From IMG/VR virus record IMGVR_UViG_3300024256_000012, positions 1 to 51,973 of that record: a stretch of 51,973 bases of DNA; one strand, 5' to 3'. The notes under the pieces were generated by a model. The model had not been told where the DNA came from. It saw nothing but the letters and a program-made list of their open reading frames with translations, and ran no database searches. Shown piece after piece: positions 1 through 51,973 of this stretch. This stretch comes from a virus. Taxonomy: Duplodnaviria > Caudoviricetes. The stretch's first letter is position 1, and each line of letters opens with the position of its first letter. Both the position numbers and the translations under genes were made by a program.

Positions 1-161
1 AAAGGAAAGACCTGAATAAACATCCCCACCTCTGACTGCACTTGAATTGAGGTTGATAGATTGGTCATCGTCATCCAGAAGAAAGTATGTACCTGAAAAG
101 TTAGTATCAACATCACCGAGTTTTATGAGAGGTGTATAATCTCCAGGGATTTCTCCAATAA
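1..161. repeat. Terminal direct repeat, left copy (circular-assembly overlap)
   Basis: Identical to 51813-51973 except G127 vs A51939, a synonymous Leu change (CTC/CTT) in the minus-strand fibre gene. Confidence 0.95.
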
Positions 162-1644
162 CACCAATAACATCACCTTCTTGGTTATAGAAATGTGTTG
201 AAGCACCGTATCCGAGAGAAGTTTCATTATTAAAGGTTATCATCCTGTTTGATGTAGGTGCTTCCCAATCATCGCCATAGTACAAACCAACTGATGTAAC
301 CCCTTGGCTATCACCTGATTCACGTACAACGTGATTCCATTTCTGTGTTTGTGCAGAGCCAAGAAAATCGTAATGGGTAATGTACCAGCCATCATCAGTC
401 GATGCGAGATACATGTTGTAATCCTTCGGAGTGTTATCACGACCAACACCCCAAACGAGATTTCCTTCATGGTAGTATCTTAGAGCACGAGAGCCAAGTT
501 CAGTCACATCAAGTTCAAGATAATACTGGTTATCAATAATGGCATCCCAGTCACCAATCTTAACTACACCACTTTCCCATTGGATTCCAGCTTCATCTCC
601 ATCAAATCCAGTAACAAACTTACTGGGTTGAAACCAAGCAGAAGTTTCCCCACCCACCTTCATCTCAATACGTTCAGTTGAATCATTTACTATGATGTGA
701 GTGCCATTCTCAACGGCATTGAAATCACCGAGATAGAATATGGAATTGGCAAAGTCAAAGTTCAAGCCTCTGGCCTCACCAGCATACCAAGTTTTAATAT
801 TTTCATTATCGTCATCCACGACAATATTGGTGCCATTATTATTTGAATCCCAGTCACCGAATTGGTAAAGGCCATTCGCGGTGTCGACATAAGCACCAGC
901 CTGATTACCAAATGTAGCAAGCTGAGTAGTATGAGAAGCATTCATATATGTAGCACCACCAGCAATAAGACTAATCTCATTAGCATTTGGTGAGATGATA
1001 TGTGTATCCCCACCACCATCTAAAAATAATGATAATCCCTGCGGGATAACCAAACCAGCAGCGTTGAGAAGTTCATCAAATGCAGCCTGTACTGTGACTG
1101 CGGAAAGATAACTTGTAGCAGGGTTGAAAGTTATCTCGTCAGCGTCAACAGAACTAACATGAACCCAAGCACTACCATCATACACAAAAGCTTGAGAATG
1201 ACCTGGTTCAATAGTTATAGTTTTATCAGCGACAACATCGAAGTTTTCTGTAGACATGTCATTGCTAACAACATAAAACTTTTTACCAGCCGTTGTGTCA
1301 GTCGGTGCCCCAATTGTATTCGAGACTCCAGCAAACGTACAAGTGATAATCGTTCCAAGGTAAGCATCCACGATAGCCGTAGCACAGCCCGCAGTATCAC
1401 CCGCATCATCGATGGTGTAGGTGGTCATAGGAAGGGATGACAAGGTCAACCCCCAGTATGCTGGGCTTGAGCTTGGCGTGTGGCCTACTCCAGCCTGAAT
1501 ACAAGTATATAATTGACCAGCATAGTTTACAATATCACCAACCGCATACCATTGCGCACCAGTGTACGTTCCAATAGCAGAACCCGACTTGGCGCCAAGA
1601 GTCCTATTGTTATGAACAACTTGCTCAATAGAAAAATTTTCCAT
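1..1644 (-). CDS. 5' part of a ~908-aa virion fibre/adhesin-like protein that continues across the circular junction into 51812-50730
   Basis: ATG at 1644 follows a GAGGAGTTTATC RBS. The frame is open to base 1 (MENFSIEQVVHNN...PLIKLGDVD...GLSF) and in frame with the 50730..51791 ORF. It has an N-terminal CBM5/12-like motif (WYAVGDIVNYAGQLYTCIQ...PSSSPAYW). The ORF track misses it because no stop falls inside the window. Confidence 0.85.
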   Translation of the reverse strand, partial: MENFSIEQVVHNNRTLGAKSGSAIGTYTGAQWYAVGDIVNYAGQLYTCIQAGVGHTPSSSPAYWGLTLSSLPMTTYTIDDAGDTAGCATAIVDAYLGTIITCTFAGVSNTIGAPTDTTAGKKFYVVSNDMSTENFDVVADKTITIEPGHSQAFVYDGSAWVHVSSVDADEITFNPATSYLSAVTVQAAFDELLNAAGLVIPQGLSLFLDGGGDTHIISPNANEISLIAGGATYMNASHTTQLATFGNQAGAYVDTANGLYQFGDWDSNNNGTNIVVDDDNENIKTWYAGEARGLNFDFANSIFYLGDFNAVENGTHIIVNDSTERIEMKVGGETSAWFQPSKFVTGFDGDEAGIQWESGVVKIGDWDAIIDNQYYLELDVTELGSRALRYYHEGNLVWGVGRDNTPKDYNMYLASTDDGWYITHYDFLGSAQTQKWNHVVRESGDSQGVTSVGLYYGDDWEAPTSNRMITFNNETSLGYGASTHFYNQEGDVIGVIGEIPGDYTPLIKLGDVDTNFSGTYFLLDDDDQSINLNSSAVRGGDVYSGLSF

Positions 1645-1664
1645 GATAAACTCCTCAACCTAGT

Positions 1665-2030
1665 TTATTGCTGAAGGACTCTTACAGCTTGCGCAGCGAC
1701 ACTTGTCAAAGGCTTAACATGTAAGTGTAATTGAACAGTGGGATTCCCAACTTGAATACCTTTAGGAATTTTGATAGCATAAACTTCTCCCCCACCACCA
1801 TTGAGAACCATATCATTGGAAGTATCAATAGCAGTCGCAGCCCCATCATCGATCAAAACATAAATGTCCAGATCAGGTCTGAGAGTTATAACAGTTGTGT
1901 CTAGGTCAATCGCTAGATCATCTTGAACACCCAAACTAATATCGAGAGCTGGTGTTGGCGACCAATCGCCACCGAAGGCACCAAGACTTACTGCATCTTG
2001 GGTTACAAAAACATGTTTTCTTAAACTCAT
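1665..2030 (-). CDS. Hypothetical virion-associated protein
   Basis: 121 aa with a GAGGAG RBS, beta-rich, located in the head/fibre operon. Confidence 0.7.
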   Translation of the reverse strand: MSLRKHVFVTQDAVSLGAFGGDWSPTPALDISLGVQDDLAIDLDTTVITLRPDLDIYVLIDDGAATAIDTSNDMVLNGGGGEVYAIKIPKGIQVGNPTVQLHLHVKPLTSVAAQAVRVLQQ

Positions 2031-2051
2031 TGTTGCTGTCTCCTCTTGTTA

Positions 2052-2079
2052 ATTATTACAGCTTGTACCCTATTGTCAA
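2052..2079 (-). promoter_or_regulatory. Possible sigma70-type promoter
   Basis: TTGACA-N16-AATAAT on the minus strand, just upstream of the RBS of 1665..2030. Confidence 0.35.
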
Positions 2080-2106
2080 AGCTTTGCCTTCGGTGGCGTG
2101 CTAAAA

Positions 2107-2568
2107 CTATTTTGTGTTAATCTTTTCCTTGATCAATTTCCAGATGTAAGACTTTTTCTGAGTTTTGTTTAGCTCTTTATAGTCAGCTTGATCTTTGTCT
2201 GGAATTAAAACATCATTCTTATCAGCCCACTTCTCTAAGTCTTTCAACTTCCAATTATAATTGGGGTCATCTTCCTTAGTTTGTTTGGGCGTGATCGTAG
2301 GCTTGGCAACGAAGTTGGACATGCGATTTTGATACTCTTCTAACATCTCCTTGACTCCTTCTCCACCCTTCAGAATTTCCCAACGAGTCGGCATGTCGAG
2401 CAATAACTGATATGCTTGCTCTTCTGAGACTTTGATAAAACAAGTTTGGGGGTGATCGATGTCGCAATAATTTCCATCACCTCTGTACTTGACCTGCATA
2501 TCTTTTCGGCTATCACCGCCAACCCATTTCAATTCTACAATATGATTTTTCTTATCGGTCATTTTCAA
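2107..2568 (-). CDS. Hypothetical protein with possible C-terminal Rho-N/HeH-like helical motif
   Basis: 153 aa with a GAAGGA RBS. WKLKDLEKWADKNDV resembles small helical domains often encoded after capsid genes. Confidence 0.6.
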   Translation of the reverse strand: MKMTDKKNHIVELKWVGGDSRKDMQVKYRGDGNYCDIDHPQTCFIKVSEEQAYQLLLDMPTRWEILKGGEGVKEMLEEYQNRMSNFVAKPTITPKQTKEDDPNYNWKLKDLEKWADKNDVLIPDKDQADYKELNKTQKKSYIWKLIKEKINTK

Positions 2569-2585
2569 TATCCTTCGCTATGATA

Positions 2586-2662
2586 AAGGCACCACGGCAG
2601 GGCTGGAAAGGAGAACCAAACCAACCCATACCATGTCACCGAAGGAACCACGTGGTGTCCTT
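2586..2662 (-). ncRNA. Candidate structured RNA element (three-way junction)
   Basis: Outer stem AAGG(A)CACCACG/CGTGGTGCCTT, a side hairpin with a cUUCGg loop, and a second hairpin GGTATGGGTTGG/CCAGCCCTGCC whose loop contains TCTCCTTT. Confidence 0.4.
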
Positions 2663-2674
2663 CGTCATCGGTTA

Positions 2675-3745
2675 TTAATCAGAAGCAGCAGACATTACAT
2701 AAGCTACAAAGATATCATCACCCTGTTCGGCTCCAGTTTCGAGCGCAATACAGAATCCATTTTCAGTAGCAGCACCAGTAACATCGGTCAGCAGAGCATT
2801 CGCAGTTCCACTTACCCATTCCAGAGCATCACCGACAGTCGCAGCAGCATTCAATCGAGCAATACCAATACGGACAGCGCCAACAAACTGGCCCCATTCA
2901 TCTCTCTTCGCTGTACCTAGAGCAGAAGCAGCTCCCAGATATACAGTGCCAAGAGTTTCTGGATCAGCAGCACCAGTTATAAGTCCGTCAATAGTCCACT
3001 TGGCCAAGTTTCCTTCAACCAGAGTAGTTCCAGACTTGATAGGAAAGCTGGCACCATAAGCAGGACCAACGCCATCTGAAATCAGATAACGAATGATATC
3101 ATCATACTGTACATAATCACCAACATCAGCATTCTCTGAATAGAATCGAACAGCTTCAATTTTATCCAAAGGAATAGCAGCCCCACCCGAAGAAACAAGG
3201 AAGGCACTCAAGGCAAATTGAGCCCATTGGTGAGCAGTCGCTACAGTCGCTGGAACATTCTGTTGTGTCGATACTTGACCACCATTATACTCAAGGGCAA
3301 TTTTCATATCTCCAGCAACATTATAATCACCAGCATTGGCAGTATGATTCCAGAAGCCAATATATTTGGTATCATTCCAATCCATCTGAGCTAAATGCCC
3401 AGCTGTTGGAATCGGCACCGACTCGTTTATGTACGCAAGCCGTACATATTGGCTGCCATCCGTAGCAGCCGTGTTAACGAGCTTCATACAGTTAGTGCCA
3501 ACCCTTTTACCAGCAGCAGCAGCAGCAACGATATCAAAGACACCACTATCGCTTTCAGTAATTCCATTCACGCTTTCACAATCGAAAACTTGAACCACAT
3601 AATTCAATCCCGCACCCAGCATGATACGTTCTAGCAGGGCAGCGAAGCTCTGTTCAGCGTCACTGGGATTATCGAGAGCAGGTACACCATAGGTGCGCAG
3701 TTGCTCGATACTTGGACCAGGTCTTGAAGCTTTAACAAGTTTCAT
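2675..3745 (-). CDS. Putative capsid decoration/cement protein with inserted beta-sandwich domain
   Basis: Directly downstream of the major capsid gene. The C-terminal ~100 aa (AAATVGDALEW...GFCIALETGAEQGDDIFV) resemble DUF2190-type decoration proteins, and the centre resembles a carbohydrate-binding jelly-roll. Confidence 0.55.
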   Translation of the reverse strand: MKLVKASRPGPSIEQLRTYGVPALDNPSDAEQSFAALLERIMLGAGLNYVVQVFDCESVNGITESDSGVFDIVAAAAAGKRVGTNCMKLVNTAATDGSQYVRLAYINESVPIPTAGHLAQMDWNDTKYIGFWNHTANAGDYNVAGDMKIALEYNGGQVSTQQNVPATVATAHQWAQFALSAFLVSSGGAAIPLDKIEAVRFYSENADVGDYVQYDDIIRYLISDGVGPAYGASFPIKSGTTLVEGNLAKWTIDGLITGAADPETLGTVYLGAASALGTAKRDEWGQFVGAVRIGIARLNAAATVGDALEWVSGTANALLTDVTGAATENGFCIALETGAEQGDDIFVAYVMSAASD

Positions 3746-3787
3746 TTTTCTTACTCCTTTTTACATTTTCATTTATGTTTTATTATT

Positions 3788-6273: not shown

Positions 6274-6275
6274 TG

Positions 6276-20936: not shown

Positions 20937-21204
20937 ATGGGACTCCTATCTTGGCAATGATTCCAAGTTCAATTCGATCTAGCTCAAGTACAAAATGATC
21001 AGTTGACATCTTCTCCATCGCAGCCCGCATCATGTAATGTACCGATGATACTCTGGCTTGGGACTTCTCATCCAGATCACTAATGTCTGGATTGTTAAAA
21101 TTCAGCTTTCTCATCTTCTTCGTTTCTGGCGACTCGATAATGAGGACATCATATGGTCCATCGTTCTCCAGCCGACAATTACACTTGTAATATTTTGGTG
21201 CCAT
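20914..21204 (-). CDS. Hypothetical protein
   Basis: 96 aa with an AGGAG/GAAGG RBS. Confidence 0.6.
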   Translation of the reverse strand: MAPKYYKCNCRLENDGPYDVLIIESPETKKMRKLNFNNPDISDLDEKSQARVSSVHYMMRAAMEKMSTDHFVLELDRIELGIIAKIGVPYEGNAIQ

Positions 21205-21221
21205 CCTTCTCTCCTAGAAAT

Positions 21222-21254
21222 GAAAAAGGGCACAGCCATTACAGCTATGCCCTT
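21222..21254 (-). terminator. Intrinsic terminator after the H1-like gene
   Basis: AAAGGGCATAGC...GCTGTGCCCTTTTT on the minus strand. Confidence 0.65.
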
Positions 21255-21271
21255 TGGGGGTTGGTCAAACT

Positions 21272-21697
21272 CTAGTCAGCGATGAATCTGTAAACAGAAT
21301 CGCCAGCCTTGTTCTTGGAGCGGTCAACTTTGCCAGCGTCAATTCGGTTGATAACACTGATGGTAGTTCCCACTGTAGAATCGGAGTAATTTTTCTGACC
21401 TACTTCAGCATCCAGCTTTTCCCGAATCTGAGCCAGAGTGGCTCCATTCTTGCGAGCAATCAATTGGCGGATGATATCACGAACACCCTTGTTCTGAGCG
21501 TGCATGGGTTTGCCAGTGATAGTCTTTGGACCATTAACAACTTTTTTGGCCTTGGCCTTGGCTGGAGCTTTCTTGGTTGCCTTTGCTTTCGCTGGGGCTG
21601 CCTTTTTAGCTACTACCTTTTTGGGGGCTGCGGCTTTGGTTGTAACTTTTTTTGCTGCGGCTGGTTTGCTGACTTTTTTGATAACTTTCTTTGCCAT
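21272..21697 (-). CDS. Histone H1-like K/A/P-rich protein with C-terminal winged helix (DUF3489-like)
   Basis: About 55 aa of KKAAPAKAK-type repeats, then RQLIARKNGATLAQI...STVGTTIS...GDSVYRF. Confidence 0.75.
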   Translation of the reverse strand: MAKKVIKKVSKPAAAKKVTTKAAAPKKVVAKKAAPAKAKATKKAPAKAKAKKVVNGPKTITGKPMHAQNKGVRDIIRQLIARKNGATLAQIREKLDAEVGQKNYSDSTVGTTISVINRIDAGKVDRSKNKAGDSVYRFIAD

Positions 21698-21946
21698 GGT
21701 GAATCTCCTTCGGCTTTTGAGCCTTTTGTGTACGTTTGTATATGGTTTATTTATCGAAAATTATTTTGGGTCGTTGTCAAAGAGCAGTTGTCTCTCGCAC
21801 CTCATCGGCACCACAGAATATAGTAGAAGAGATACAGAAGAACCTACAAAATACTAAAAATATCTCACTTTCACCCAGCCTAAGTTCACTATTCATAATT
21901 GTCTATGCCTCTAAACTTTTCGGTTGTTGGTGTGCTAAAAACATCG

Positions 21947-24900
21947 TTATTCAGCAACCTTTCCCTTCTTCAGTACCTTCAACTTGCTTATATCAATCTT
22001 GTTAAATCCAGGCACCTTCCTTCCCTGAAAGACTATCACCGACCCAACACCCGACTCTTCAAATATGAGCTTCTTGAACTTCCCAAATTTGTATCTATTA
22101 ATTCCAGCGAGTATCTGCCCTGTATCATCCTCCATCTGCATGATAAGAAACTCGTGTAAATCAGGTCGCTTGATCTTGGTCAAATCCTTCTGTGCGGTGA
22201 TACCAGCCTCAAATACATCTCGCAAATTCAGTCGGGTTATCTTCGCCAATATGATTACTTCTTCGGTGCGCTCTGTTACATCTTTGATTAGAGTCCACTT
22301 GCCCTCATATTTGTCGTACCAGTCTTGGAATCCTTCACCAATAGGATACAAGTCAGCCCACGGCAATAGGTCGGTGATAATGTCCATCCCCTTTGGGTTG
22401 CCAATCTCTTTGAACGTATCAATTATGGCTCCAGTAATCCCATCAAACAAGTCGGTCTGATTGATGTCACCCTTCGCTATTAATCCCTCAGGCAACTTAC
22501 CTAGCAAATGCAGGCTCTCTAACCCTCTTTTACCAAGAGCTTTCCTGAAGTCCTTGCTATTGCTCCATGGGCGTGTTGCGACAATTTTATCGGCTGCTTT
22601 CTCGCCAATTCCTTTCACGTTCTGAAAGCCACCATATATGATACCTTCTTTGAGGGTAAAATTCTGTTCGGACTTCTCCAAATCCAACGGCTCGAACTTC
22701 CCACCACGATCAACCCACTCTCGCAATAGCTTCTTGATAATGTCATCATCGTTCTCCTTGCGAATAGTGGAGATGTAAAACTCAGCTGGGTAGTGGGTTT
22801 TGAGATAGGCTGTCCAGTATGATAAAAGCCCATAGGAAACTGAGTGAGATTTATTGAATGCCCAAGAGCCGAATGTACAGACGTTCTCCCAAATGATTTG
22901 AGCTATCTCTTTGGTGACTCCATTCTTCCCAGCACCCTCAATGAACTTGCTTTCGTATGTCCGAAAATATTCAACACCCAAGCTCTTGCTCATAATTTTT
23001 CTCAGAGCAGTAGCATCCTCCCAGTTCATCCCACCTAGCTCTTTTACAATCGTGAGAACTTGCTCTTGATAGACTACAATTCCATAAGTCTCTCCAGCTA
23101 GAGTTTCGAGCATCGGGTGAATATATTGAACCTTCTTTTTTGTCGGTATGTCAAAGCCCATCTCGTGAGCTCTGTAATTGATATAACGAGTCGTGCCACC
23201 ACAGTGTAGTGACCCAGGTCGTGCCAGTGCGCTTATCTCTGCTATGTTAGTAAATTTGTCAGGCTGTACTTGTTTGTTGACCATCCTAACAGCGTCACCT
23301 TCAAATTGGAAAATTCCCCAGAGCTTATTTGTGCGAAAGGTCTCAAATGTTTTCGTATCTTCCAGAGGCAAATTATACAGCCAATCATAATCCTTCTCGA
23401 TCAGCAAAAGGATATTCTCTAGAATGGTAAGTTGCTTCAGTCCAAGCAGGTCAATCTTCAGCAAGCCGACTGCTTCAGAATCCTTCTTGTCCATACTGAT
23501 GATTCGTTCTCCTTTCGTGCCCCTAACAAGCCCACCTAGCTTGTCTATGGGCTGATCTGATACTACGAGCCCAGCGGCATGAATCCCGTGCTGTTTGATC
23601 TGTCCTTCGATCTTGGCTGCTTCCTTGAATAAAGGATATTGTTTCACAATCGCTTTGCTTCTCTCGAACTGGTCAAAGGTATCAGTCAAACAAAAGCTGG
23701 CACGAGCATCAGCTGAACTCCTTTCGACTATCAAATTGACAAGCTCTTGAGCTTCCCTGAATGGTAGGTCGTATGCCCTTCTTGTATCCCACAAAGCTAC
23801 CTTCGGTTTGAAGTATCCAATCGTGCCTAGCTGGCTTGTATACTCCTCCCCATATTTGTCAATCAAATACTCGATAACCATATGACGCTTTTCATCTGGG
23901 AAGTCTAGATCAATATCAGGTGGATCATTTCGAGTGATGTCAATAAATCTCTCGAAAATTAAGCCGTGAGGAATTGGATCAACTTCAGTTATCCTGAGGA
24001 CATAAGCGACTATGGAACCAGCTACACTTCCACGAGCTGGCCCAAGCAACATCCTCTTCTTAGCCCACACGCAAAGGTCTTGGATGACTAGGAAGTAGTC
24101 AATGTAATTTTTCTCGTTGATGAGCTTGACTTCCTTCGCAAGTCGTTTCTCGTACACTGGCCAGTCCTTGAGCTTTTTTAACCCTCTGAACTTTACTCCA
24201 GTGGTGATCTGATACAGGAAAAATTCCTCTTTGTTTTTCCATAGAGCATTCTTCTCCAGTGGGAAAGTTTTCTGCCCTGATATAACTCGCTTATCTGAAC
24301 ACTTGTCGTCAATCTCAAGGGTGTTCTCGAAAGGAGAGTGATCAGGGTAAACAAGGGCAGACCTTTCCTCAGCTTCAGCTCCATCGAAGAGATACAATTC
24401 AGGCATCAGTTTTAATCGGTTGGGGTCATCGAAGTTTGACTTGGTTCCTATGCATACAATCAAGTCCTCTGCTGTATGATCGTGGGGGCTGGGGAAGTGC
24501 GAGTCAGAAGTTGAGACTGGCTTGATATTATATTCATCTGCAAGCTCAAGTATCTGAGTCACCTCCCCAGCAAACTTTTCGATTGGGCTGACTTCTATAT
24601 AAAAGTCATCTTTGAATGCCTTCTTAAAACTCTTCAGATATTTGTCCCTGTATTGAGTTTTGCTAAGGTTATTAATTAAGACTCCAGCACCCATACATCC
24701 CGACAAAACGATCAACCCTTCGTTATGAGCCAGCAGAGTTTTGAAGTCGATTCTTGGCTTGTAATAGAATCCCTCAAAATTGCTAAAGGTTATCAGCTTG
24801 TGTAGGTTCTCTTGCCCAGTCTCATTCTTAGCCATAACTGTTATATGATAACGATGCCTGTCATGCCTATCCATAGCATCATCGACAATATAAAACTCAC

Positions 24901-25102
24901 AGCCGTAAATTATCTTGGTGCCGTTGTTTCGCTTCTTCGCTTCTCGCCAGAATGGAACATGAGCCCAGATATTGCCATGGTCAGTTATAGCTAGCGACTT
25001 GTGCCCAATCTCCTCTAGCCTATCAAGGTATTGAGCTGGCAATCCATACCCATCTAGGAAACTGTACCCAGTATGAGTATGGAGGTGTATGAAATCTAAC
25101 AT
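21947..25102 (-). CDS. dnaE: DNA polymerase III alpha subunit (family C)
   Basis: PHP motifs HLHTHTGYSFLDG, AITDHG and SDSHF; GPARGSVAGS, FERF, catalytic PDIDLD, HAAG, KIDLLGL, YQEQ and FNKSH; C-terminal OB-like MEDDTG. Confidence 0.97.
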   Translation of the reverse strand: MLDFIHLHTHTGYSFLDGYGLPAQYLDRLEEIGHKSLAITDHGNIWAHVPFWREAKKRNNGTKIIYGCEFYIVDDAMDRHDRHRYHITVMAKNETGQENLHKLITFSNFEGFYYKPRIDFKTLLAHNEGLIVLSGCMGAGVLINNLSKTQYRDKYLKSFKKAFKDDFYIEVSPIEKFAGEVTQILELADEYNIKPVSTSDSHFPSPHDHTAEDLIVCIGTKSNFDDPNRLKLMPELYLFDGAEAEERSALVYPDHSPFENTLEIDDKCSDKRVISGQKTFPLEKNALWKNKEEFFLYQITTGVKFRGLKKLKDWPVYEKRLAKEVKLINEKNYIDYFLVIQDLCVWAKKRMLLGPARGSVAGSIVAYVLRITEVDPIPHGLIFERFIDITRNDPPDIDLDFPDEKRHMVIEYLIDKYGEEYTSQLGTIGYFKPKVALWDTRRAYDLPFREAQELVNLIVERSSADARASFCLTDTFDQFERSKAIVKQYPLFKEAAKIEGQIKQHGIHAAGLVVSDQPIDKLGGLVRGTKGERIISMDKKDSEAVGLLKIDLLGLKQLTILENILLLIEKDYDWLYNLPLEDTKTFETFRTNKLWGIFQFEGDAVRMVNKQVQPDKFTNIAEISALARPGSLHCGGTTRYINYRAHEMGFDIPTKKKVQYIHPMLETLAGETYGIVVYQEQVLTIVKELGGMNWEDATALRKIMSKSLGVEYFRTYESKFIEGAGKNGVTKEIAQIIWENVCTFGSWAFNKSHSVSYGLLSYWTAYLKTHYPAEFYISTIRKENDDDIIKKLLREWVDRGGKFEPLDLEKSEQNFTLKEGIIYGGFQNVKGIGEKAADKIVATRPWSNSKDFRKALGKRGLESLHLLGKLPEGLIAKGDINQTDLFDGITGAIIDTFKEIGNPKGMDIITDLLPWADLYPIGEGFQDWYDKYEGKWTLIKDVTERTEEVIILAKITRLNLRDVFEAGITAQKDLTKIKRPDLHEFLIMQMEDDTGQILAGINRYKFGKFKKLIFEESGVGSVIVFQGRKVPGFNKIDISKLKVLKKGKVAE

Positions 25103-25647
25103 ATGGGGTTGTTCCTTTTTACCAGCTGAATTAAAACTGCGAGATTGCGCTCAGCGACTCCGATAATGATGCTGATGTTTACCTTTAAGCCCCCAGTGTC
25201 ATGCTTCTTGTAATAATCATTCTCAAGTAGATTCTTAAAAGTGGTTTCAGTAAATGTATGTTTGTGGTCTAAATCTTGGTGCGCCATATTCGATTTGTAG
25301 TATGGAACTGTTATGTTAATAACTCCATCAGATTTTAAAACTCTAGACATATCAGCGATAAGTGGAATCACATTTTGGATATGCTCTAGGAAATGGTGGC
25401 AATTGATAACGTCTACAGAGTTGGCCTTGAAAGGAATAGGATTTGATTCAGCATCCCATGATGGCCAATCTAACACCCTGTTATTTTCTAAGACCTTCAT
25501 CATGCCAGCTCCCAGATTTAAGATAACAGCGTCATCACCGACATCCCACTCAGGCTTATAATAAACAGAATTGATATCACGATCCATCCCGACTTTGAAA
25601 AACTCTCGAAGAGTTTTGGGGAAAGCCCCAAAATATTTCTTTGTCAT
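25096..25647 (-). CDS. Class I SAM-dependent methyltransferase-like protein (Methyltransf_11 type)
   Basis: Motif I VILNLGAG; IPFKANSVDVINCHHFLEHI; RVLKSDGVINITVP. No DPPY or PC DNA-methyltransferase motif. Confidence 0.8.
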   Translation of the reverse strand: MTKKYFGAFPKTLREFFKVGMDRDINSVYYKPEWDVGDDAVILNLGAGMMKVLENNRVLDWPSWDAESNPIPFKANSVDVINCHHFLEHIQNVIPLIADMSRVLKSDGVINITVPYYKSNMAHQDLDHKHTFTETTFKNLLENDYYKKHDTGGLKVNISIIIGVAERNLAVLIQLVKRNNPIC

Positions 25648-26462
25648 TTCTTATCTCCATCGGTGCTAAAGTGTTCAGACTTAAAGACTCGATCACCAGC
25701 CCACTCGAACTCGCATTGCTCTTCTGTCTCCTCAAATCCTTGGAACATACACTTGTGAGTTTTCTCGCAACTGATCTTTATGTACGGCTCCATCCAAGGC
25801 CATAGAATTAAAACTTCACTTGCCATTCGCTGCATTACTTCGACCATCTCCCACTGGAACATCGGGCAAGCTCGATAAGCGAAAGTGTCCAAGAAAACTT
25901 TGATTGGATATTCAGCCACAATATAAGTCTCTATGCCAACAGGAACAGCAAACCTTGCGTCTTGGTATGGGATGCCCAGTTCGCACAGCTTCTCGTATGT
26001 TTTACGAGCTTGAAACACAAGGTTATTAAAAATCTGATGAGCATCCCTATCGTTCCAGATTGTTTTAGGTTCTCGAACATTAAACTTGGCACCCATAAAA
26101 GTGTAGCGAGAAGATTGCTGGTGGAAGGCTGCTTTGCGAGTCCTTACCATCTGGTGAGTAAAAGCCCGACTGACTCCGCTTATCTCGAAGGTGAACACGC
26201 CAGCTTCCAATCCTGTCTGGAGTCCTCCTTTGAATAACTCTTCGCCAACCTCTGGTGGAATGTCTTCATTAATATCTCCACCCACAGTAGCTCCAACCAT
26301 CTTTGATAAAGCTCTTTTGAATCTCTTCTCATCTGGGTAGTCGATAAGCTTGACTTGGATACCATCGGTGCCAGCGTGAACTTCTCCTTTGTTTAAAGGA
26401 CTGATCGCATTCATGCCGTGCTCGTGAGAATTGAACGCAGTTTTCTTATTCTTGTTAAGCAT
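25644..26462 (-). CDS. thyX: Flavin-dependent thymidylate synthase homolog (ThyX family, divergent motif)
   Basis: FTFEISGVSRAFTHQMVRTR...QQSSRY, GIPYQDARFAVP and FQWEM. The canonical RHR reads RTR. Confidence 0.85.
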   Translation of the reverse strand: MLNKNKKTAFNSHEHGMNAISPLNKGEVHAGTDGIQVKLIDYPDEKRFKRALSKMVGATVGGDINEDIPPEVGEELFKGGLQTGLEAGVFTFEISGVSRAFTHQMVRTRKAAFHQQSSRYTFMGAKFNVREPKTIWNDRDAHQIFNNLVFQARKTYEKLCELGIPYQDARFAVPVGIETYIVAEYPIKVFLDTFAYRACPMFQWEMVEVMQRMASEVLILWPWMEPYIKISCEKTHKCMFQGFEETEEQCEFEWAGDRVFKSEHFSTDGDKK

Positions 26463-26805
26463 CTTGGCTTTCCTTTTCCATCTTCTCGATATTGAGAATT
26501 GTTAGTATTGAATAGTTTGCTAGGTCGATCAAGTTTTGTTTTACGTTCTCCAAATCCCTTTCTCTGGACTTGGGAGTTTTGCCTAGCATGAAATGATTAA
26601 GCTGGCGCACGTGACCTGATTTGAATAATCCTTTAACACGCAACCACTTCCTTTTGATATCATAATAGCTTCCAACCAGATCATCTTCCAAAAAGGAATT
26701 ACCATACTGGACATTCTTAACTGTAAAGACTCGAAGCATCTGCTGAGTTATCTCTTCAAATCTATTTTGTATTTCAATTTGGCTCATTCTATTCTCCATT
26801 GTCAT
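26455..26805 (-). CDS. DUF1599 / nucleotide-modification-associated domain 1 (all-alpha NTP-PPase-like)
   Basis: KNVQYGNSF...DIKRKWLR...LIDLANYSIL signature. Confidence 0.75.
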   Translation of the reverse strand: MTMENRMSQIEIQNRFEEITQQMLRVFTVKNVQYGNSFLEDDLVGSYYDIKRKWLRVKGLFKSGHVRQLNHFMLGKTPKSRERDLENVKQNLIDLANYSILTILNIEKMEKESQDA

Positions 26806-27719
26806 CTTATTTCATCCAGAGTTTTAATTCTGATTACATTCTTGCCCATATCACCTTGGTTGTAATCAGTGTCGATCAGATAACACTTTTTGCCAGCTTT
26901 GCTAATGTCATTAGCATAGTGTAGCATATCTTCAACCATAAACTCGATATTGGGGAACTGGCTTATGGCATCTTGATTTTTCTTCTCGCTGAAGATGATA
27001 GCGTCACGGCCATCCTCCCACAGATCATTTTCCCTCAACCAAAATAAAGTATCTGAAAAAATTCGGCTGTATTCTTTTACTGGCCTTGAGGTCAAATACA
27101 CTATCGAATATCCTGCGCTGTGCATGCTTTTGATAAAACTCCACGCACCTGAGCATAGCTCCATTGTACGCTTCTTGCCAGTCTCTCGATACTCGTGTTT
27201 GAGTTTCCTGATTGCTTTCCTTCCTAAGACTTTTTCATATGCTCTGAAGATGTCGTCTGTAAATGTTATCGGCTCCACCTGAGTCTCTTCGTGAATAAAC
27301 TTCATAAAGGAGTAAGGATAGTCAGCCAGCACCCCATCCAGATCACAAGCAATAATCTTTTCCCTATCTCGAAGCTTGAGAAGTTTTTCCTGAACCCAGC
27401 GTTGTTCCACCACAGCACTTTTATCAGCAAAAGCTTCCATAAACTCATCTGGTGCCCAGCCCCAGACCTGCCCTATGACGAGCCAGTATTTGAATATGTC
27501 AATCCACTCTTCTCGAATATTAGAAATGGTGAGCTGCTCCTTACTAGGCCGATGCGCTTTGTAGTTGATTTCTCGAAGCAACTCACCCAATTCTGCCATC
27601 AATTGTAAAACATATTCCTTAGTATATTTCTGTTTGGAATCTGTGTCATAAATCTCATCTGATATATTTGTCTGGAAGTCGGCTTGCCTATCCCAGATTT
27701 GCTGTAGTCTATCGCTCAT
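26802..27719 (-). CDS. Fusion of an all-alpha dimeric dUTPase/dCTPase-like NTP-PPase and a HAD 5'(3')-nucleotidase-like domain
   Basis: N-terminal ELGELLRE...YKAHR...EEWIDIFKY; C-terminal HAD motifs IACDLDGVLAD, YLTSRP, K and MVED. Confidence 0.85.
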   Translation of the reverse strand: MSDRLQQIWDRQADFQTNISDEIYDTDSKQKYTKEYVLQLMAELGELLREINYKAHRPSKEQLTISNIREEWIDIFKYWLVIGQVWGWAPDEFMEAFADKSAVVEQRWVQEKLLKLRDREKIIACDLDGVLADYPYSFMKFIHEETQVEPITFTDDIFRAYEKVLGRKAIRKLKHEYRETGKKRTMELCSGAWSFIKSMHSAGYSIVYLTSRPVKEYSRIFSDTLFWLRENDLWEDGRDAIIFSEKKNQDAISQFPNIEFMVEDMLHYANDISKAGKKCYLIDTDYNQGDMGKNVIRIKTLDEIR

Positions 27720-28651
27720 AGTTTTAATCCTTTCAATCTGCTCATTTCTTGCCAGCTCTGATCGAGTTTGTAACCCTTCTCCCAGTTAGCATATCGACCT
27801 ACCATATACATGCCGCTGTCTCTTAATAACTGTTTGGTGTTATCTAGATCAAGAAGAGTTTTATCAACTGGAAAAACTTTTCCTGGTGTTAGTTTTATTC
27901 CTTGGCTACCAAAGGCAGCAGGATTCATATATTCTCTCGTCATTAGACTACCAGCCAAAGTTGTCCTGTAATGCCCGACTTCTTTGTCATAGTTATAGAT
28001 AATGATCATATTGTTTTTACCAAGAGGAGAATCCAGCAAGCTCTGTCTTATGTAGATCGGCTTTGACCTGAAAGCTTCATATGGCATATTCCTTATCACC
28101 TCAGGAACTATAATTGGCCCACCATAGTCGGCTCGTGTTATAAGTTTTAAGAAGCTGGGCAGAGGCAGTGTGTTAATAATAGTTTTGGCATATATAGTCC
28201 CTTTGTCTGTATCAACTCGCTTGGCGTTGCTGCCCATATTCTGAATATAGATTTTGGTCACTCTTCTATCATAGTCGAAATGCCCAGCTGAAGCTAGCAT
28301 ATGATCAATGTTAAGTTTATAGCCAAATGCCATCTTCTCGTCAATCGAAACTCCAGCGACTTGCTCCCCATAAACCTTCTCTGAATACTGCTCTGTAAAA
28401 TCTTCATCCTGCCGTGGGCCATCGATCATCCACGCCACACTGATAGTCTCGTCAGTCACCAAAGGGTGGAGATGTCGGTGGACATAGAAGGCAGCCGTTG
28501 AGCTATACATTTTGCGGGTGGTACTAAACGAATTTGCCTCCACGTGCCCTATCCTATCGGCTGGAATTTTCATCACGTGTTTTAAGTAGGAGTGAGCCAA
28601 TAATCCCGATGGCCCAGCCCCAATAATTAAGTAATCACAAGTCAATTGCAT
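27716..28651 (-). CDS. FAD-dependent oxidoreductase-like protein
   Basis: Dinucleotide-binding YLIIGAGPSGLLA, IINTLPLP and C-terminal YMVGRYANW, as in UDP-galactopyranose mutase/amine-oxidase-like flavoproteins. Confidence 0.8.
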   Translation of the reverse strand: MQLTCDYLIIGAGPSGLLAHSYLKHVMKIPADRIGHVEANSFSTTRKMYSSTAAFYVHRHLHPLVTDETISVAWMIDGPRQDEDFTEQYSEKVYGEQVAGVSIDEKMAFGYKLNIDHMLASAGHFDYDRRVTKIYIQNMGSNAKRVDTDKGTIYAKTIINTLPLPSFLKLITRADYGGPIIVPEVIRNMPYEAFRSKPIYIRQSLLDSPLGKNNMIIIYNYDKEVGHYRTTLAGSLMTREYMNPAAFGSQGIKLTPGKVFPVDKTLLDLDNTKQLLRDSGMYMVGRYANWEKGYKLDQSWQEMSRLKGLKL

Positions 28652-28671
28652 TTCCTTTTTCCTTTTTCTTT

Positions 28672-31602
28672 TTAGTCAAACATTTCTTGTTCAGTTTCGG
28701 GGTCAACTTGGAAAGCCGAATCATCCACGACAATCTGGCCATTTTTTCTCATATTGAGATACGTTATGAATGCCTCAGTTTTAACATAGAAGGAAGTACC
28801 AACTGTCTTCAAGGCATTATTGTTTCTTAAAACTCGCAGCACATTCTTAACAGCAGACCTTTCCCAGCCTGTTATGTCCACGAGCGAAGATAGATTCAAA
28901 CGATCATCCTCAAGGAGAAGAGGCACGAAGTCATTCTTGATAACCGCATCCACCGCAGATCGGTCTTTCAGTTTTGTTTTACTTAGCTCAACCTCAGACC
29001 ACTCTCCATATCTCATAGAGCTTTTGTTGTAAATCTTTTCCAGCCAGTTATAGAAGAAGTCAACGTGGCCAGTTTTAACAAGGAGGGTTTTGCCGTGGGT
29101 GTTGGTGCTGAAAAACATACCAGCTACAGCAGAAGCACCTCTCATTAGTTTTAATCTTTGATCAGAAGGTTCAACAATTGGTATGCCGTGATAATACTTA
29201 TCACCCATCTGCCTAGCATATTGTAAAACTTTCTTAATTGCTCCAGCCGTAAATTTCACCTCATCAGTTTTACGAGACCAGACCCACATAACAAGATCGT
29301 GACATAAGGCCTGAGTATATTTGAGCACCCTTTCCTCTTTTACTTTCACCCTGTTATAGACTTCTTTGTTCACCTCTTCGCTATGGGCTGTCAGGACAAA
29401 ATCGAATCGCCTGATGTCCTCTAGATTGCCGATCAAATCCCTGACCGCAATACAGCCATAAGGATATTGCATCATGTTCCTACTCGTGTGGCCAATCTTG
29501 CGTGGGTTACCAATCCAAACCTTTCGAGTTTGCGCCATAGTTTTCTCAGTCCTAATCTTAGTCAACTCAGCTATCCCTGATGACCTTACTCCAGAGAACA
29601 AAGCTATGTCTTCAACGCTCATTCCTGATATCTCGTCAATGATTAAAGCTCTGCGGTTATTAAGTGGGATTTTGCCCCAGTTGATATGCCATCGCTTCGC
29701 TGTCTGGCTTAGTCCTCCGATGAGCCCAGCAATGCTAGAGCTTTCACCAGTTACAAATTCTGCAACCCCATAGTGTTTAATCATCGCTTTGGCTAGCTCA
29801 GTTTTGCCACAGCCAGAATCTCCAATGATTAAACTCTCCATCCAACCACGCTCAACCTTCCCTTGAAACTTAACATTCAACGGACTGTGGAGAGTTATAT
29901 CAAATGTCATAGCGATGTCCATCCGATCATAGATGCCACTTATATGTTCGATGTCCTCATGCCTTTCGAGATAAGCCTTCATCATTTCTTCAGCACTACC
30001 ATCGCACTGGAAAATTTCCAAACGCTTTTCCATCTCCTCATTCATATCGAATTGGTCGATTGAATCAACAGTTTCTATGGCATCGAAAAAGAGCTGGGTG
30101 CTCTGCTGTGTTTTCGGGTTAGGAAGGGCAAGCCCTCTTAAAACATAGACTTGGTTGGCCTGTACTCCTAGCCCAGCGTGATACGCTACATTCTGAACAT
30201 ATTCATAATTCGCATCGGTGGTGAAGTCTATCTCTGGGATGAGTCTTAACTCTTCTATGTTTATATATGTTTTTGTATCTATCCTAAATCTGTCGCACCT
30301 ATTCGGGATGCCCAGCTGCTTCTTGATATTCCTAAACAAAGCATCATCTCGAATGTCGATAAGATTTAACAAACTGCCTCTGTCAACCTCCTCCTTCAAA
30401 AATATATCTTTATTGTTATCAGTCACCTGATAGAAGGGACAAAATGGGCATAGGTTCTCGCCACCCTTGGCATCGCATTTACAATTAACTTTATTTGGAA
30501 TTTCATAGGGTGGATAATCCTTGCCTGATACTAGAGCTTTGACTTCAATATTCATCAACGCATTCTTCGCATGGCTGGCGTCAGCAAGAGTGACCTTTTT
30601 ATATTCCTTGTTTCTCTCCTTCTTCCCATACTCCATTGTATCATAATATTCTTTGGCTGCTGTTAAAACTTCTCTGAAGTCCTCTATTGTTTTACCATAT
30701 GTTATTATAAAGTCTGTGAAGTCATCTCCTCCTTTCGGCTCTTCAATAAACTTCCCCAGCTCTGCTATGAATACAATCTCAGCTATCCCTACCAATTGCT
30801 TGGCGACTCGAATTGCTCCAGCTTCTCCAGCCTTATCTACATCATACAATATATAGACTTTTTTGTCCTTGAAATATTTATGAGGCCAGCCCTTGTTAAA
30901 ACTTCCAGCCCCACTCGTAACAGTCACGGCCTTCAGCCCCATCTGGTCGGCCAACATCGCATCCATCTCTCCTTCGACAATCAATATTTTCTTCGACTCT
31001 AGATTGTGAAGAGGAAACAAGCGCATGCGCCCATATTGGTATTCTGAATCATCGGTGTAATTGATTAATTTGAACTTGGGATTCTTCATCAGGAAAGCAT
31101 ATTGGCGTACATTCCTGCACTTGCCTTCGCTGTCGAATATTGGTATGGTGATTCTGTTCCTAAAATATCCAAGCTTGTGCTTCTTGATAGTCGCTAGAGT
31201 GATGCCACGCATCTCCTCCAGCTTGGATATTATCATCTTGTTATCGAGCAAAGCCTTGTGCCAACTTTCCCATATAGAATTGTCAACTGTTCCCTCAAGA
31301 GAATAGTCATCAGCATTAAGCTTTATATCAAGATGTTTACAGAGCCATTGAATGCGTTCTCGTTTCGTTTCCAGCCCCAGCTTTTTCTCAAGGAATGTAT
31401 AGACGTTTCCAGACCCGCATCCCGCATAACAATTGTATTGCCCTGTTTGAGAATTAAAACCAAAACTGGGGTCAGTATCTTCGTGTAAAGGACAATGTCC
31501 AGAAAACTGTCCATCTCCCAACGGCTTAATCTTTTCTACAAAATCTTCATAGAATCTCAGGTAGTCAATCTTCAATTCTATCTGTTCAATAATACTAGGC
31601 AT
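28672..31602 (-). CDS. Primase-helicase: CHC2 zinc finger, TOPRIM (DnaG-type) and MCM-like AAA+ helicase
   Basis: CPLHEDTDPSF..CYAGC; IVEGEMD and YDVDKAG; Cys cluster CKC...CPFC; GDSGCGKT, SSIAGLIGG, IIDE, IGNP and RRFD. Confidence 0.9.
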   Translation of the reverse strand: MPSIIEQIELKIDYLRFYEDFVEKIKPLGDGQFSGHCPLHEDTDPSFGFNSQTGQYNCYAGCGSGNVYTFLEKKLGLETKRERIQWLCKHLDIKLNADDYSLEGTVDNSIWESWHKALLDNKMIISKLEEMRGITLATIKKHKLGYFRNRITIPIFDSEGKCRNVRQYAFLMKNPKFKLINYTDDSEYQYGRMRLFPLHNLESKKILIVEGEMDAMLADQMGLKAVTVTSGAGSFNKGWPHKYFKDKKVYILYDVDKAGEAGAIRVAKQLVGIAEIVFIAELGKFIEEPKGGDDFTDFIITYGKTIEDFREVLTAAKEYYDTMEYGKKERNKEYKKVTLADASHAKNALMNIEVKALVSGKDYPPYEIPNKVNCKCDAKGGENLCPFCPFYQVTDNNKDIFLKEEVDRGSLLNLIDIRDDALFRNIKKQLGIPNRCDRFRIDTKTYINIEELRLIPEIDFTTDANYEYVQNVAYHAGLGVQANQVYVLRGLALPNPKTQQSTQLFFDAIETVDSIDQFDMNEEMEKRLEIFQCDGSAEEMMKAYLERHEDIEHISGIYDRMDIAMTFDITLHSPLNVKFQGKVERGWMESLIIGDSGCGKTELAKAMIKHYGVAEFVTGESSSIAGLIGGLSQTAKRWHINWGKIPLNNRRALIIDEISGMSVEDIALFSGVRSSGIAELTKIRTEKTMAQTRKVWIGNPRKIGHTSRNMMQYPYGCIAVRDLIGNLEDIRRFDFVLTAHSEEVNKEVYNRVKVKEERVLKYTQALCHDLVMWVWSRKTDEVKFTAGAIKKVLQYARQMGDKYYHGIPIVEPSDQRLKLMRGASAVAGMFFSTNTHGKTLLVKTGHVDFFYNWLEKIYNKSSMRYGEWSEVELSKTKLKDRSAVDAVIKNDFVPLLLEDDRLNLSSLVDITGWERSAVKNVLRVLRNNNALKTVGTSFYVKTEAFITYLNMRKNGQIVVDDSAFQVDPETEQEMFD

Positions 31603-50258: not shown

Positions 50259-50277
50259 GATAAAACTCCCCTATGAA

Positions 50278-50718
50278 TTAATCAAGTTTTGTCAAAAGGA
50301 TAGGCCAGAGAAGATTCCAAACCTCAGTTTGATATCCATCGAGACGTGTTTGCATTTCTTTACTACACGAGCCATGCACTTCAATCTCTTGAGCAACACA
50401 TTGGATCAATTGATCCTTCTCAATAGGCAAAGCTTTGCGAAGTTCATTCACTTCCTTAGTTGCTTTCAGAAAGTCCTTTCTGACTTGGCCATCGGTTTGG
50501 TACTCGATGGAGAGTTTTATCAATCGGATGATATATGCTGCGCAATCATCCCCATCAACCATAGCGATAGTATCAAACAGAGCTTCTTGAGTTGGATTAG
50601 AGCCAGCTCCATTTTCCTTGAAGGATGCACTGTCACCCTGTAGGTCCTCATAGGCAACTGCATCGCCAGTTCTAAAAACATTTGCTTGAAGTGGGTCACC
50701 AGTATTGCCAATTGCCAT
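50278..50718 (-). CDS. Hypothetical protein
   Basis: AGGAGTTTTATC RBS; N-terminus MAIGNTGDPLQANV resembles MATKNVGDPILAGV of the next gene. Confidence 0.65.
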   Translation of the reverse strand: MAIGNTGDPLQANVFRTGDAVAYEDLQGDSASFKENGAGSNPTQEALFDTIAMVDGDDCAAYIIRLIKLSIEYQTDGQVRKDFLKATKEVNELRKALPIEKDQLIQCVAQEIEVHGSCSKEMQTRLDGYQTEVWNLLWPILLTKLD

Positions 50719-50729
50719 GATAAAACTCC

Positions 50730-51812
50730 TTAGCTGTTAGAGCTTCTGGAAAGCTCAACCCACTCTGTGCCGTTGTGTAAAAACTCGATTCTGTCATCAA
50801 CGTGGTCCATAACGAAATCAGCACCACCAGCACAGATGAATGCCCCTGCTCCAGTTCCATCCTTAACAGTGATTTGATTTGAAGCCCCTGAAGCATTTGG
50901 GGATAAGATCAATCTCGCTCCATTCGTTCCACCACCACAAGTAACAAGGTCATCAGCTCCAGCACCTGGCCCACCAACAGGGATAACTTTCAACCAACTT
51001 TTTTCAGTAGTCACGTGACCAGAAGCATTCAATGTCGATACACCTGATTCATGTATTAAAAGTCTTTCCACAGTAAAGGTACACCCAAAGATTCCAGCCT
51101 GACCATTTCCATCGTCAATCTTGAGGAAAGAACCATTGCGAAGTTCATCCCAATCTCCAAGGTGGTAAATTTCATTACCCCAGTCAATATCCAGACCAAT
51201 CGGTGAAGTGCCTTCCCTTGTTTGAACGAGCTCATTATTATTATCAATGATCAAGTTCTTTTCGTTGAAGGCTCCATCCCAGTCGCCCACTTCGGTAAAT
51301 TGATTGGCATTATCAATCCTGAATCCTTGTTCAGTTGTTTGAATAGTCCTATTGAAGTCATCCAAGATAAATTGCGTTCCATTAACAACATAATCAATGT
51401 CTCCAATTACCATGCCATAGTTCGGAGTAGCTTCCATTAGCAATCCACCGCCTTGGCCAAACAGGGTCAAGCCATTGGTGTCGGATAAGTACATCTCAAC
51501 AGTACCAAACTTAAATGAATGAGTCCCTTGGGCAACATCTACTGTGAACAAAGCCCCATTCCCATACCAATCATCGATATCACCAAGCTTAATAGTTTCC
51601 CCTTGTGTTAAAACTTCAAGGAAGCGACCATCAGTGTTGCCAATCCAAGTTGCATTTGTATTATCTTCAACTCTTAGCAGGTTCCCGTTGTATAATGCTT
51701 CAGGGTCACCTAAGCTGAATTCCAGACCACCAAAATCTAATTTCAGACCAATAGTATCTGAACCAAACCCACCGTCATAAAATGCGAACATGTTAGCTGC
51801 AACATCTAGTTC
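50730..51812 (-). CDS. 3' part of the junction-spanning fibre/adhesin-like protein
   Basis: The frame stays open upstream of the listed Met 51791 (...ELDVAANMFAF). Repeated GDxD...NG...hDD units; C-terminus FLHNGTEWVELSRS is typical of fibre ends. Confidence 0.85.
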   Translation of the reverse strand, partial: ELDVAANMFAFYDGGFGSDTIGLKLDFGGLEFSLGDPEALYNGNLLRVEDNTNATWIGNTDGRFLEVLTQGETIKLGDIDDWYGNGALFTVDVAQGTHSFKFGTVEMYLSDTNGLTLFGQGGGLLMEATPNYGMVIGDIDYVVNGTQFILDDFNRTIQTTEQGFRIDNANQFTEVGDWDGAFNEKNLIIDNNNELVQTREGTSPIGLDIDWGNEIYHLGDWDELRNGSFLKIDDGNGQAGIFGCTFTVERLLIHESGVSTLNASGHVTTEKSWLKVIPVGGPGAGADDLVTCGGGTNGARLILSPNASGASNQITVKDGTGAGAFICAGGADFVMDHVDDRIEFLHNGTEWVELSRSSNS

Positions 51813-51973
51813 AAAGGAAAGACCTGAATAAACATCCCCACCTCTGACTGCACTTGAATTGAGGTTGATAGATTGGTCATCGTCATCCAGAAGAAAGTAT
51901 GTACCTGAAAAGTTAGTATCAACATCACCGAGTTTTATAAGAGGTGTATAATCTCCAGGGATTTCTCCAATAA
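51813..51973. repeat. Terminal direct repeat, right copy
   Basis: 161-nt match to 1-161 with one mismatch. Confidence 0.95.

Follow-up and report, generated by a model that had tools for sequence, protein, structure and literature searches.

Genome organization and gene content

The viral record IMGVR_UViG_3300024256_000012 (Duplodnaviria; Caudoviricetes) of the IMG/VR database holds a phage genome from which the tetranucleotides CCGG and CGCG, together with a longer series of short DNA words, are missing almost completely. The window analysed here is the entire record (positions 1 to 51,973; 51,973 bases, of which ~51,812 are unique), and its completeness is estimated at 100%. Because the end of the record (51813..51973) repeats its first 161 bases (1-161) except for a single mismatch, at position 127, the record is either circular or terminally redundant. 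The window has a guanine plus cytosine (GC) content of 42.4% and an observed/expected ratio (O/E) of 0.68 for CpG. A total of 59 genes cover 90.7% of the genome, and the large genes are all found on the minus strand. The structural genes include a portal with a Mu-F domain, the capsid, a prohead protease, two tail-tube paralogues, the tape measure, and a terminase, the last identified by BLAST. A tail-fibre-like gene of 908 amino acids, with a weak Pfam match to CBM_5_12, is read on the minus strand as an open reading frame over the circular junction and hence spans the ends of the record (1..1644 for its 5' part, 50730..51812 for its 3' part). The terminal overlap with its single mismatch sits within this gene, which suggests population variation in the tail fibre.

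The replication genes comprise a DnaE-type polymerase, a primase-helicase, an SNF2 helicase, and proteins similar to Pam3 gp32 and gp34. The primase-helicase (28672..31602, minus strand) combines a CHC2 zinc finger, a Toprim domain, and a P-loop, and adjoins a replication and nucleotide module (20937..28671, minus strand) delimited by Pfam matches and synteny. In the order of transcription, and all on the minus strand, this module encodes a protein of 311 amino acids with no assigned function (28651-27716), a weakly matching dUTPase_2/NT5C-like fusion (27719-26802), a protein with a weak, sub-threshold match to DUF1599 (26805-26455), the thymidylate synthase ThyX (26462-25644; Pfam 2.9e-29, NCBIfam 3.2e-23), a small S-adenosylmethionine (SAM) methyltransferase of the Methyltransf_11 type (25647-25096), and the DnaE-type polymerase (25102-21947), the assignments resting on Pfam. 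In ThyX, RTR stands where RHR is usual and Ala replaces the first Ser of the motif, while the later Ser and Arg are retained; both Pfam and NCBIfam place the protein in the ordinary thymidylate synthase family. A six-frame search of the genome gave no match to the DNA methyltransferase families PF00145 (C5), PF01555 (N6/N4), and PF02086 (D12) or to the integrase families PF00589 and PF00239, a search that divergent enzymes could escape, and the phage appears to be virulent. There are no tRNA genes in the window, and ~25 small open reading frames have no family match.

Absence of CCGG, CGCG and other short words

A scan by eye had led to the original prediction that CCGG is entirely avoided and that CGCG occurs only once, in a genome where CCG is common. 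Exact counts over the 51,973 bases bear this out, with 0 copies of CCGG, 1 of CGCG, and 220 of CCG. The sole CGCG lies at 877..880, the position given in the prediction, inside the tail-fibre gene, where a codon ending in C is followed by the Ala codon GCG. Word expectations were obtained from Markov models of orders 0-4 and, because ~91% of the genome is coding, a synonymous-codon shuffle was added as a second null, in which the synonymous codons were permuted 300 times within each of the 59 genes so that the proteins and the codon usage of each gene were kept. The Markov expectation for CCGG is 101.7 copies from base composition, 63.3 at first order, and 29.0 at second order (29-102), and that for CGCG is 101.7, 55.1, and 42.5, respectively (43-102). 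The codon shuffle expects 57.0 ± 5.8 copies of CCGG, with a minimum of 42, and 58.4 ± 6.1 of CGCG, with a minimum of 40. The count of CCGG is thus nowhere near its Markov expectation, the comparison by which the prediction was to be checked, and the deficit of both words is far beyond chance (Poisson P of 3e-13 to 2e-25). The other two palindromic tetramers made of G and C only are close to expectation, with 92 copies of GGCC against 103-120 and 59 of GCGC against 72-91. These two words had been reported as present along with GATC, AAGCTT, and GAATTC, which is accurate (160, 55, and 5 copies for the last three); GAATTC is low, with 16 copies expected.

The purge extends well beyond CCGG and CGCG, to at least 14 further words. 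Giving in brackets the observed count, the codon-shuffle expectation, and the range over Markov orders 1-3, the strongly purged words are CCGG (0; 57; 29-67), CGCG (1; 58; 43-54), CGNCG (1; 78; 39-47), CGRYCG, which includes CGATCG (0; 15; 12-17), CCTCG (0; 55; 42-57), RGATCY (0; 41; 31-65), SGATCS (1; 28; 22-42), TTCGAA (0; 17; 15-30), CYCGRG, which includes CTCGAG (0; 17; 20-25), CTTAAG (0; 12; 10-18), AGCGCT (0; 10; 9-13), CTATAG (0; 14; 8-11), ACSGT (3; 42; 23-35), CCGAG (5; 43; 43-59), CCGTC (2; 42; 13-36), and CGGAA (6; 56; 21-64). Within these, CGWCG is found 0 times against 22-41 expected and AGATCT 0 times against 11-24. CCWGG (16; 47; 73-92), TGCA (74; 132; 185-289), and GGATC (23; 75; 56-106) are partly depleted. 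Other words are kept or enriched, for example TCGA (257), AGCT (377), CTAG (159), TGATCA (27), GATATC (22), and AAGCTT, whose 55 copies exceed the 26-46 expected. CACC/GGTG is the top over-represented tetramer pair (CACC 326 against 199, GGTG 156 against 85), and CACA/TGTG and CTAA/TTAG are depleted over the whole window.

The loss falls on palindromes in particular. Among hexamers with at least 5 expected copies, 8 of 45 palindromes are missing altogether, compared with 13 of 1,696 non-palindromic pairs (Fisher P 1.7e-8). The eight, all of which contain A or T, are AGCGCT, CGATCG, CTCGAG, GGATCC, AGATCT, CTATAG, CTTAAG, and TTCGAA. The statement that A/T-containing palindromes persist was therefore right for the few that had been named and wrong for these eight. 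The loss is symmetric by strand, CCTCG, CGACG, and others being absent in both orientations, and it is exact to the word, as the single-letter neighbours of CCTCG, CCGAG, CGACG, and others stand at or above expectation (for example, ACTCG 92 observed against 77 expected, CATCG 135 against 95, and CCTCA 90 against 92).

Removal through codon choice and the surviving copies

The words have been removed through the choice of codons. The Pro codon CCG makes up 59 of the 552 Pro codons overall and none of the 173 ahead of a codon that starts with G, and codons of the form NCC are 483 of 3,293 overall and 0 of 261 ahead of Gly. Likewise, CGG is used for 26 of 665 Arg codons and for 0 of 143 following a codon that ends in C. 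The same holds for CGCG: CGC accounts for 79 of 321 CGN codons, with 0 of 103 ahead of G, and GCG for 152 of 1,214 Ala codons, with 1 of 147 following a C-ending codon, that one being the surviving CGCG. Since the codon used varies with the codon next to it, selection acts on the DNA word and not on the protein.

The 16 strongly purged words have 19 surviving copies genome-wide. Eight of them are clustered in a central 1,143-bp stretch of the tail-fibre gene (51771 to 1101 across the junction, 2.2% of the genome), at positions 116, 205, 212, 728, 877, and 1101, plus two at 51771-51772. The binomial P for this clustering is 3e-9 with boundaries that were picked post hoc; when the genome is divided into fixed 2-kb bins, 6 of the 19 fall in the first. 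We interpret this patch as a receptor-binding segment that would have been imported recently and would still be uncleaned.

Purged words in related phages

The window was compared with the relatives designated G001, G002:C7, L007, L220, L215/216, and L218/219, each of which has its own purged set. The gene order of G001 (45.7 kb, GC 0.423) matches that of the window almost from end to end, with protein identities of 30-67%, and this genome keeps CCGG, CGCG, and CCWGG at or above expectation (132, 26, and 131 copies, respectively, with 48 of CCTCG and 21 of RGATCY). Its own purge is of the asymmetric word GGATC/GATCC, with 0 copies against ~140 expected. In G001, CCCCCC is also absent (0 against 29), CGATCG is over-represented (19 against 3), and the cyanobacterial HIP1 octamer is missing. 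G002:C7 (49.4 kb), whose DnaE and portal share 57% and 40% identity with those of the window, has lost CCGG (0 against 34 expected), CGCG (0 against 15), GCGC (2 against 35), TGATC/GATCA (14 against 137), TGATCA (0 against 26), and GGGCC (0 against 23), and retains CCTCG (34) and RGATCY (37). L220, a 12-kb sequence with the nearest capsid relative (66% identity), shares with the window the losses of RGATCY (0 against 15), CGNCG (1 against 9), CCTCG (2 against 10), and CCGAG (2 against 10), but its CCGG is enriched ~2.5-fold (65 against 26 expected). At a still shorter distance, the fragment L007 (83% nucleotide identity over 2.9 kb) has two copies of CGCG and two of CGAGG where the window reads CTCG or CAAG and AGAGG or TGAGG. 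Hence, the purge is acquired, varies by lineage, and is built of independent words; it is not fixed in the phage family. When IMG/VR was scanned for further family members with the primase-helicase, both as a single sequence and as an alignment, only G001 was found.

CCGG is also missing from more distant sequences. Among the IMG/VR loci fetched with DnaE that are otherwise unrelated to the window, 45 of 65 have no CCGG, several of these loci being near-duplicates, and subgroups also have no GCGC, TCGA (0 against 20-37), or AGCT (0 against 50-110). Among loci from prokaryotic genomes, 6 of 79 have no CCGG, and two of these six are the related phage. We read the loss of CCGG and CGCG as common in environmental phages and not as the sign of a shared mechanism. 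A phage-borne cause tied to the DnaE module was considered and rejected, as the DnaE-fetched loci share only DnaE with the window. These loci (L008-L086) have a GC content of 0.33-0.43 and a CpG O/E of 0.4-0.55, and most have neither CCGG nor CGCG; the closest cultured DnaE proteins, at 55-58%, are those of Streptomyces phages of the BillNye type.

Exchange of a methyltransferase module in the sister phage

The primase-helicase of the window (64% identity to that of G001) is the left anchor of an exchange of ~7.5-7.7 kb. From this anchor to the next gene present in both phages, G001 carries a replacement block (record positions 18387-25842, L206) in place of the replication and nucleotide module. 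The block encodes PolA, an N6/N4 DNA methyltransferase (4e-12), a ThyA-like protein (1e-7), a C5 DNA methyltransferase (6e-24), an asparagine-synthase-like amidotransferase, a dCMP deaminase, and a dUTPase. The closest solved structure to the C5 methyltransferase is M.HaeIII, at only 8e-11. The trio of ThyA-like protein, amidotransferase, and deaminase could be a base-hypermodification pathway. Neither the C5 nor the N6/N4 methyltransferase family has a match in the window or in G002:C7, and these two share the module of ThyX and the dUTPase_2/NT5C-like protein adjoining the polymerase. Thus G001, which carries methyltransferases, keeps the words, whereas the window and G002:C7, in which no such genes were detected, have lost them, a contrast drawn from three genomes. 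The window and G001 form a clean natural comparison of two anti-restriction strategies, the purging of sites and the carriage of methyltransferases, exchanged as one module.

Probable restriction-site avoidance and alternative explanations

The purge is, in all likelihood, explained by broad avoidance of restriction sites for multiple enzymes. A phage with no detected DNA methyltransferase would meet, unprotected, the many restriction enzymes of an uncultured marine and probably bacterial host population. Each copy of a recognised word would be a potential lethal cut, and selection would favour variants in which a synonymous or conservative change has destroyed a copy, until the word is gone; each purged word or small group of words would then correspond to one restriction specificity of the host. 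The original prediction had likewise taken the gaps as the footprint of host restriction and hence as a clue to the host, and this part of it stands, if on too narrow a scale, given that the loss is strand-symmetric, word-exact, silent, variable between lineages, and missing in the methyltransferase-bearing G001; its further proposal, that a modified T or A is involved, is not supported, as discussed below.

Several of the words are presumably the sites of known enzyme types: CCGG of HpaII/MspI, CGCG of BstUI/FnuDII, RGATCY of BstYI, TTCGAA of BstBI/AsuII, CTCGAG/CYCGRG of XhoI/AvaI, CTTAAG of AflII, and CGWCG of Hpy99I. We know of no prototype enzyme for CCTCG, CGSCG, ACSGT, CCGAG, CCGTC, or CGGAA. 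Bacillus phages with no GGCC or CGCG and Staphylococcus phage K with no GATC are classic site-poor virulent phages that offer no target to the enzymes common in their host genus, and the present phage would resemble them in this. The difference is that their hosts and enzymes are known, whereas here the list of words serves in reverse, as a prediction of the host repertoire. The Bacillus subtilis phages SPR and phi3T protect themselves by C5 DNA methyltransferases of their own, which are often multispecific; the sister G001 resembles them in carrying its own DNA methyltransferases, and the window phage, with none detected, does not.

A literature search on the avoidance of CCGG and CGCG in phages found nothing specific. 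On avoidance at large, the relevant parts of one survey report that it is strongest in non-temperate phages and at orthodox Type II sites, that avoidance of non-orthodox sites is rare, and that coliphages with a DNA hydroxymethylase avoid far fewer sites than related ones without (Rusinov et al., 2018, BMC Genomics 19:885, PMC6286503). As far as these parts go, the window phage is similar in the loss of short, mostly palindromic words, in having no detected integrase, and in having a modifying relative that avoids fewer words, and differs in that at least 16 words are gone from one 52-kb genome, that asymmetric 5-mers are purged from both strands, and that the host enzymes are putative (Rusinov et al., 2018).

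Some points weigh against an explanation by restriction alone. The link from word to host enzyme is a putative one, and the contrast between methyltransferases and purge stands on three genomes. Several purged words (CCTCG, CCGAG, CCGTC, and CGGAA) are non-palindromic 5-mers, a non-orthodox class which, in the parts of the survey that treat it, is described as rarely avoided (Rusinov et al., 2018). Oligomers of G and C only are depleted as a class, which the listed words explain in part, so a further constraint could act. Many of the small early genes have no recognisable function, and an unrecognised gene for modification or anti-restriction could be among them.

The depletion of G/C-only words is also where two of the alternatives begin. 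The original prediction had suggested that a modified T (or A) protects the sites that contain A or T and leaves only the G/C-only sites to be purged. A bulky thymine derivative of this kind would fit the sharp step by which G/C-only words are the most depleted class (non-palindromic hexamers have an O/E of 0.15 when all G/C and of 0.89 with one A or T) and the absence of any G/C run longer than 6 bases. It would also fit some of the gene content, namely the module of ThyX and the dUTPase_2/NT5C-like protein beside the polymerase in the purged lineage (window and G002:C7), the RTR in place of RHR in ThyX, and the small SAM methyltransferase together with a weak match to a 'nucleotide modification associated' domain. 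SPO1-type phages have genomes with hydroxymethyluracil and its derivatives, or otherwise hypermodified at thymidine, and the window resembles them in its nucleotide-metabolism cluster beside the polymerase and in its G/C-only words being the most depleted. However, unlike in these phages, sites rich in A and T are purged as well, no enzyme for hydroxymethylation or for later modification steps was found, and ThyX looks ordinary. Words rich in T and A are equally gone, including TTCGAA (0 against 15-30), CTTAAG (0 against 10-18), AGATCT (0 against 11-24), CTATAG (0 against 8-14), RGATCY (0 against 31-65), CCTCG (0 against 42-57), and CGWCG (0 against 22-41). Sorted by A/T content, the palindromic hexamers with a count of zero are 4 of the 15 that have two A/T positions and 4 of the 23 that have four; none of the 688 non-palindromic hexamers with at least four A/T positions is at zero. 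GGCC and GCGC, two of the four G/C-only palindromic tetramers, are kept, and a CCGG flanked by T does not survive either (TCCGGA 0). ThyX fits the ordinary thymidylate synthase family, no typical hydroxymethylase, kinase, or transferase appeared among the ~60 proteins scanned, and a ThyX homologue is found in 0 of the 65 unrelated IMG/VR loci, 45 of which nevertheless have no CCGG. Because many of the purged words contain A or T, the thymine reading fails, this being the very kind of loss that the original prediction had named as cutting the link to T modification, and we regard it as very unlikely. A literature search on DUF1599 in phages returned unrelated papers only.

A second, non-classical layer beside restriction avoidance may be considered, in which some factor penalises G/C-only or CpG-dense stretches, for example a defence that senses CpG clusters or G/C runs, or a constraint of melting or packaging. 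It would be minor and would not exclude the restriction reading, and we consider it improbable, if less so than a modified base. In its favour, the lengths of G/C runs drop faster than geometrically (549, 149, 23, and 0 runs of 4, 5, 6, and at least 7 bases), as they do in G002:C7, while those of G001 are geometric up to length 11. All-G/C hexamers that contain neither CCGG nor CGCG number 23 against 146 (shuffle), 141 (first-order Markov), and 40 (fourth-order Markov), or 21 against 137 for the non-palindromic ones; CpG pairs 2 and 3 bases apart are found 1 time each against ~42-56 and 37-48; and CpG is present in 12 of the 16 strongly purged words. Yet the loss resolves into specific words. 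CGAGCG/CGCTCG is kept (7 against 10-12) and CGRYCG and CGAACG are at 0; GCCCC (43 against 38), GGCC, CGGC, and GCCC are at expectation; and a few 5-mers or a C/G homopolymer account for most of the zero-count hexamers, the depletion of the class being traced mostly to CGSCG, CCGC, CGCC, CCCG, and C/G homopolymers. L220 uncouples CCGG, with its 65 copies, from CGCG, CGNCG, and CCTCG, and homopolymers are likewise avoided in G001, as its missing CCCCCC shows, even though its G/C runs persist. A single rule of no two CpGs within 4 bases was rejected, as CGAGCG/CGCTCG is kept. Mutational decay, by which CCGG and CGCG would be 5-methylated and lost through deamination to TG/CA with no selection by cutting, is most improbable. 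CGTG is indeed over-represented (108 against 68) and the overall CpG O/E is 0.68, but a mutation bias lowers counts and does not yield 0 against 57 and 1 against 58; words with no CpG (RGATCY, CTTAAG, and CTATAG) are equally absent, the replacements relative to L007 include C-to-A and G-to-T changes and not transitions alone, and no C5 methyltransferase was found in the window. Chance or an assembly artefact, for which nothing was found in favour, deserves the least credence of all: none of the 300 shuffles came near the observed counts, the sequence is present at full word share in 14 public runs and partly in 10 more among the runs listed, and the independent contigs of the relatives carry purges of their own.

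Under avoidance of restriction sites, the preferred explanation, the principle is a textbook one, and the window phage is a new and unusually broad example of it. The explanation gives a clue to the host of this abundant and uncultured marine phage, as it predicts that the host methylates or restricts CCGG, CGCG, RGATCY, TTCGAA, CTTAAG, CTCGAG, AGCGCT, CGNCG, and CCTCG. A stronger and more tentative proposal, which we think possible and would not expect to hold in full, is that the purged list is the negative image of the restriction repertoire of the uncultured marine host population, with at least ~15 independent specificities, asymmetric and degenerate words among them, and possibly with an extra penalty on G/C-only stretches longer than 6 bases. 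If this were true, the phage genome alone would predict new enzyme specificities and would give a fingerprint for finding the host in methylome data. Two features, the complete loss of asymmetric 5-mers and the limit on the length of G/C runs, somewhat exceed what is described in the parts of the survey on avoided sites and may point to uncharacterised specificities (Rusinov et al., 2018).

Host

All 24 of the public runs listed as holding the sequence are labelled as seawater or marine metagenome. No close cultured relative was found: 9.7 kb of the window had no megablast match among 50,697 phage records, and in tblastn searches with DnaE, the portal, the capsid, the primase-helicase, the Pam3_Gp34-like protein, and the terminase, the best matches had just 22-34% identity and were not informative on the host. 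They were scattered over phages with Vibrio, Mycobacterium, Bacillus, Microcystis, Arthrobacter, and Acinetobacter hosts and a Methanosarcinales virus. A search of a protein atlas with ThyX gave viral clusters only.

A freshwater cyanobacterial host such as Microcystis had been suspected from the many avoided sites, the GC content of 42%, and a capsid match, and was dropped because of the uniformly seawater or marine labels of the listed runs. PMC8262939, in the portion that bears on this point, offers context on restriction-system-rich cyanobacteria only.

In a DnaE scan of genome collections, the related phage contig (DnaE 57%) occurred in metagenome-assembled genomes titled Methanosarcinales and Marinimicrobia. 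Because the two bins contradict each other and their other contigs keep CCGG (19-32 and 60-73 copies per 20 kb), the contig is treated as mis-binned and the binning gives no host. When positions 1-20000 of the window were searched at the DNA level against 401 genomes from the phylum to which G003 belongs, one of the phyla named by these bins, 43 had a match. One of these is the related-phage contig of G003 itself (C66, ~600 bases at 65%), and the other 42 are AT-rich stretches of 23-59 bases at chance level, none of them spacer-like.

Use of the Shine-Dalgarno sequence is strong, with AAGGAG near -12 in 37 of the 59 genes. Two strong terminators, each a hairpin followed by a T run, lie at module boundaries on the minus strand (21225-21255 with a 14-bp stem and 11742-11770 with a 12-bp stem). 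The Shine-Dalgarno use, the replication genes of DnaG/DnaE type, and the two terminators together point to a bacterial host that uses Shine-Dalgarno initiation, and nothing more precise follows from them; judged from these sequence features, the host is probably bacterial. The ribosome-binding context that recurs at the gene starts is AAGGAGTTTTAnC ATG.

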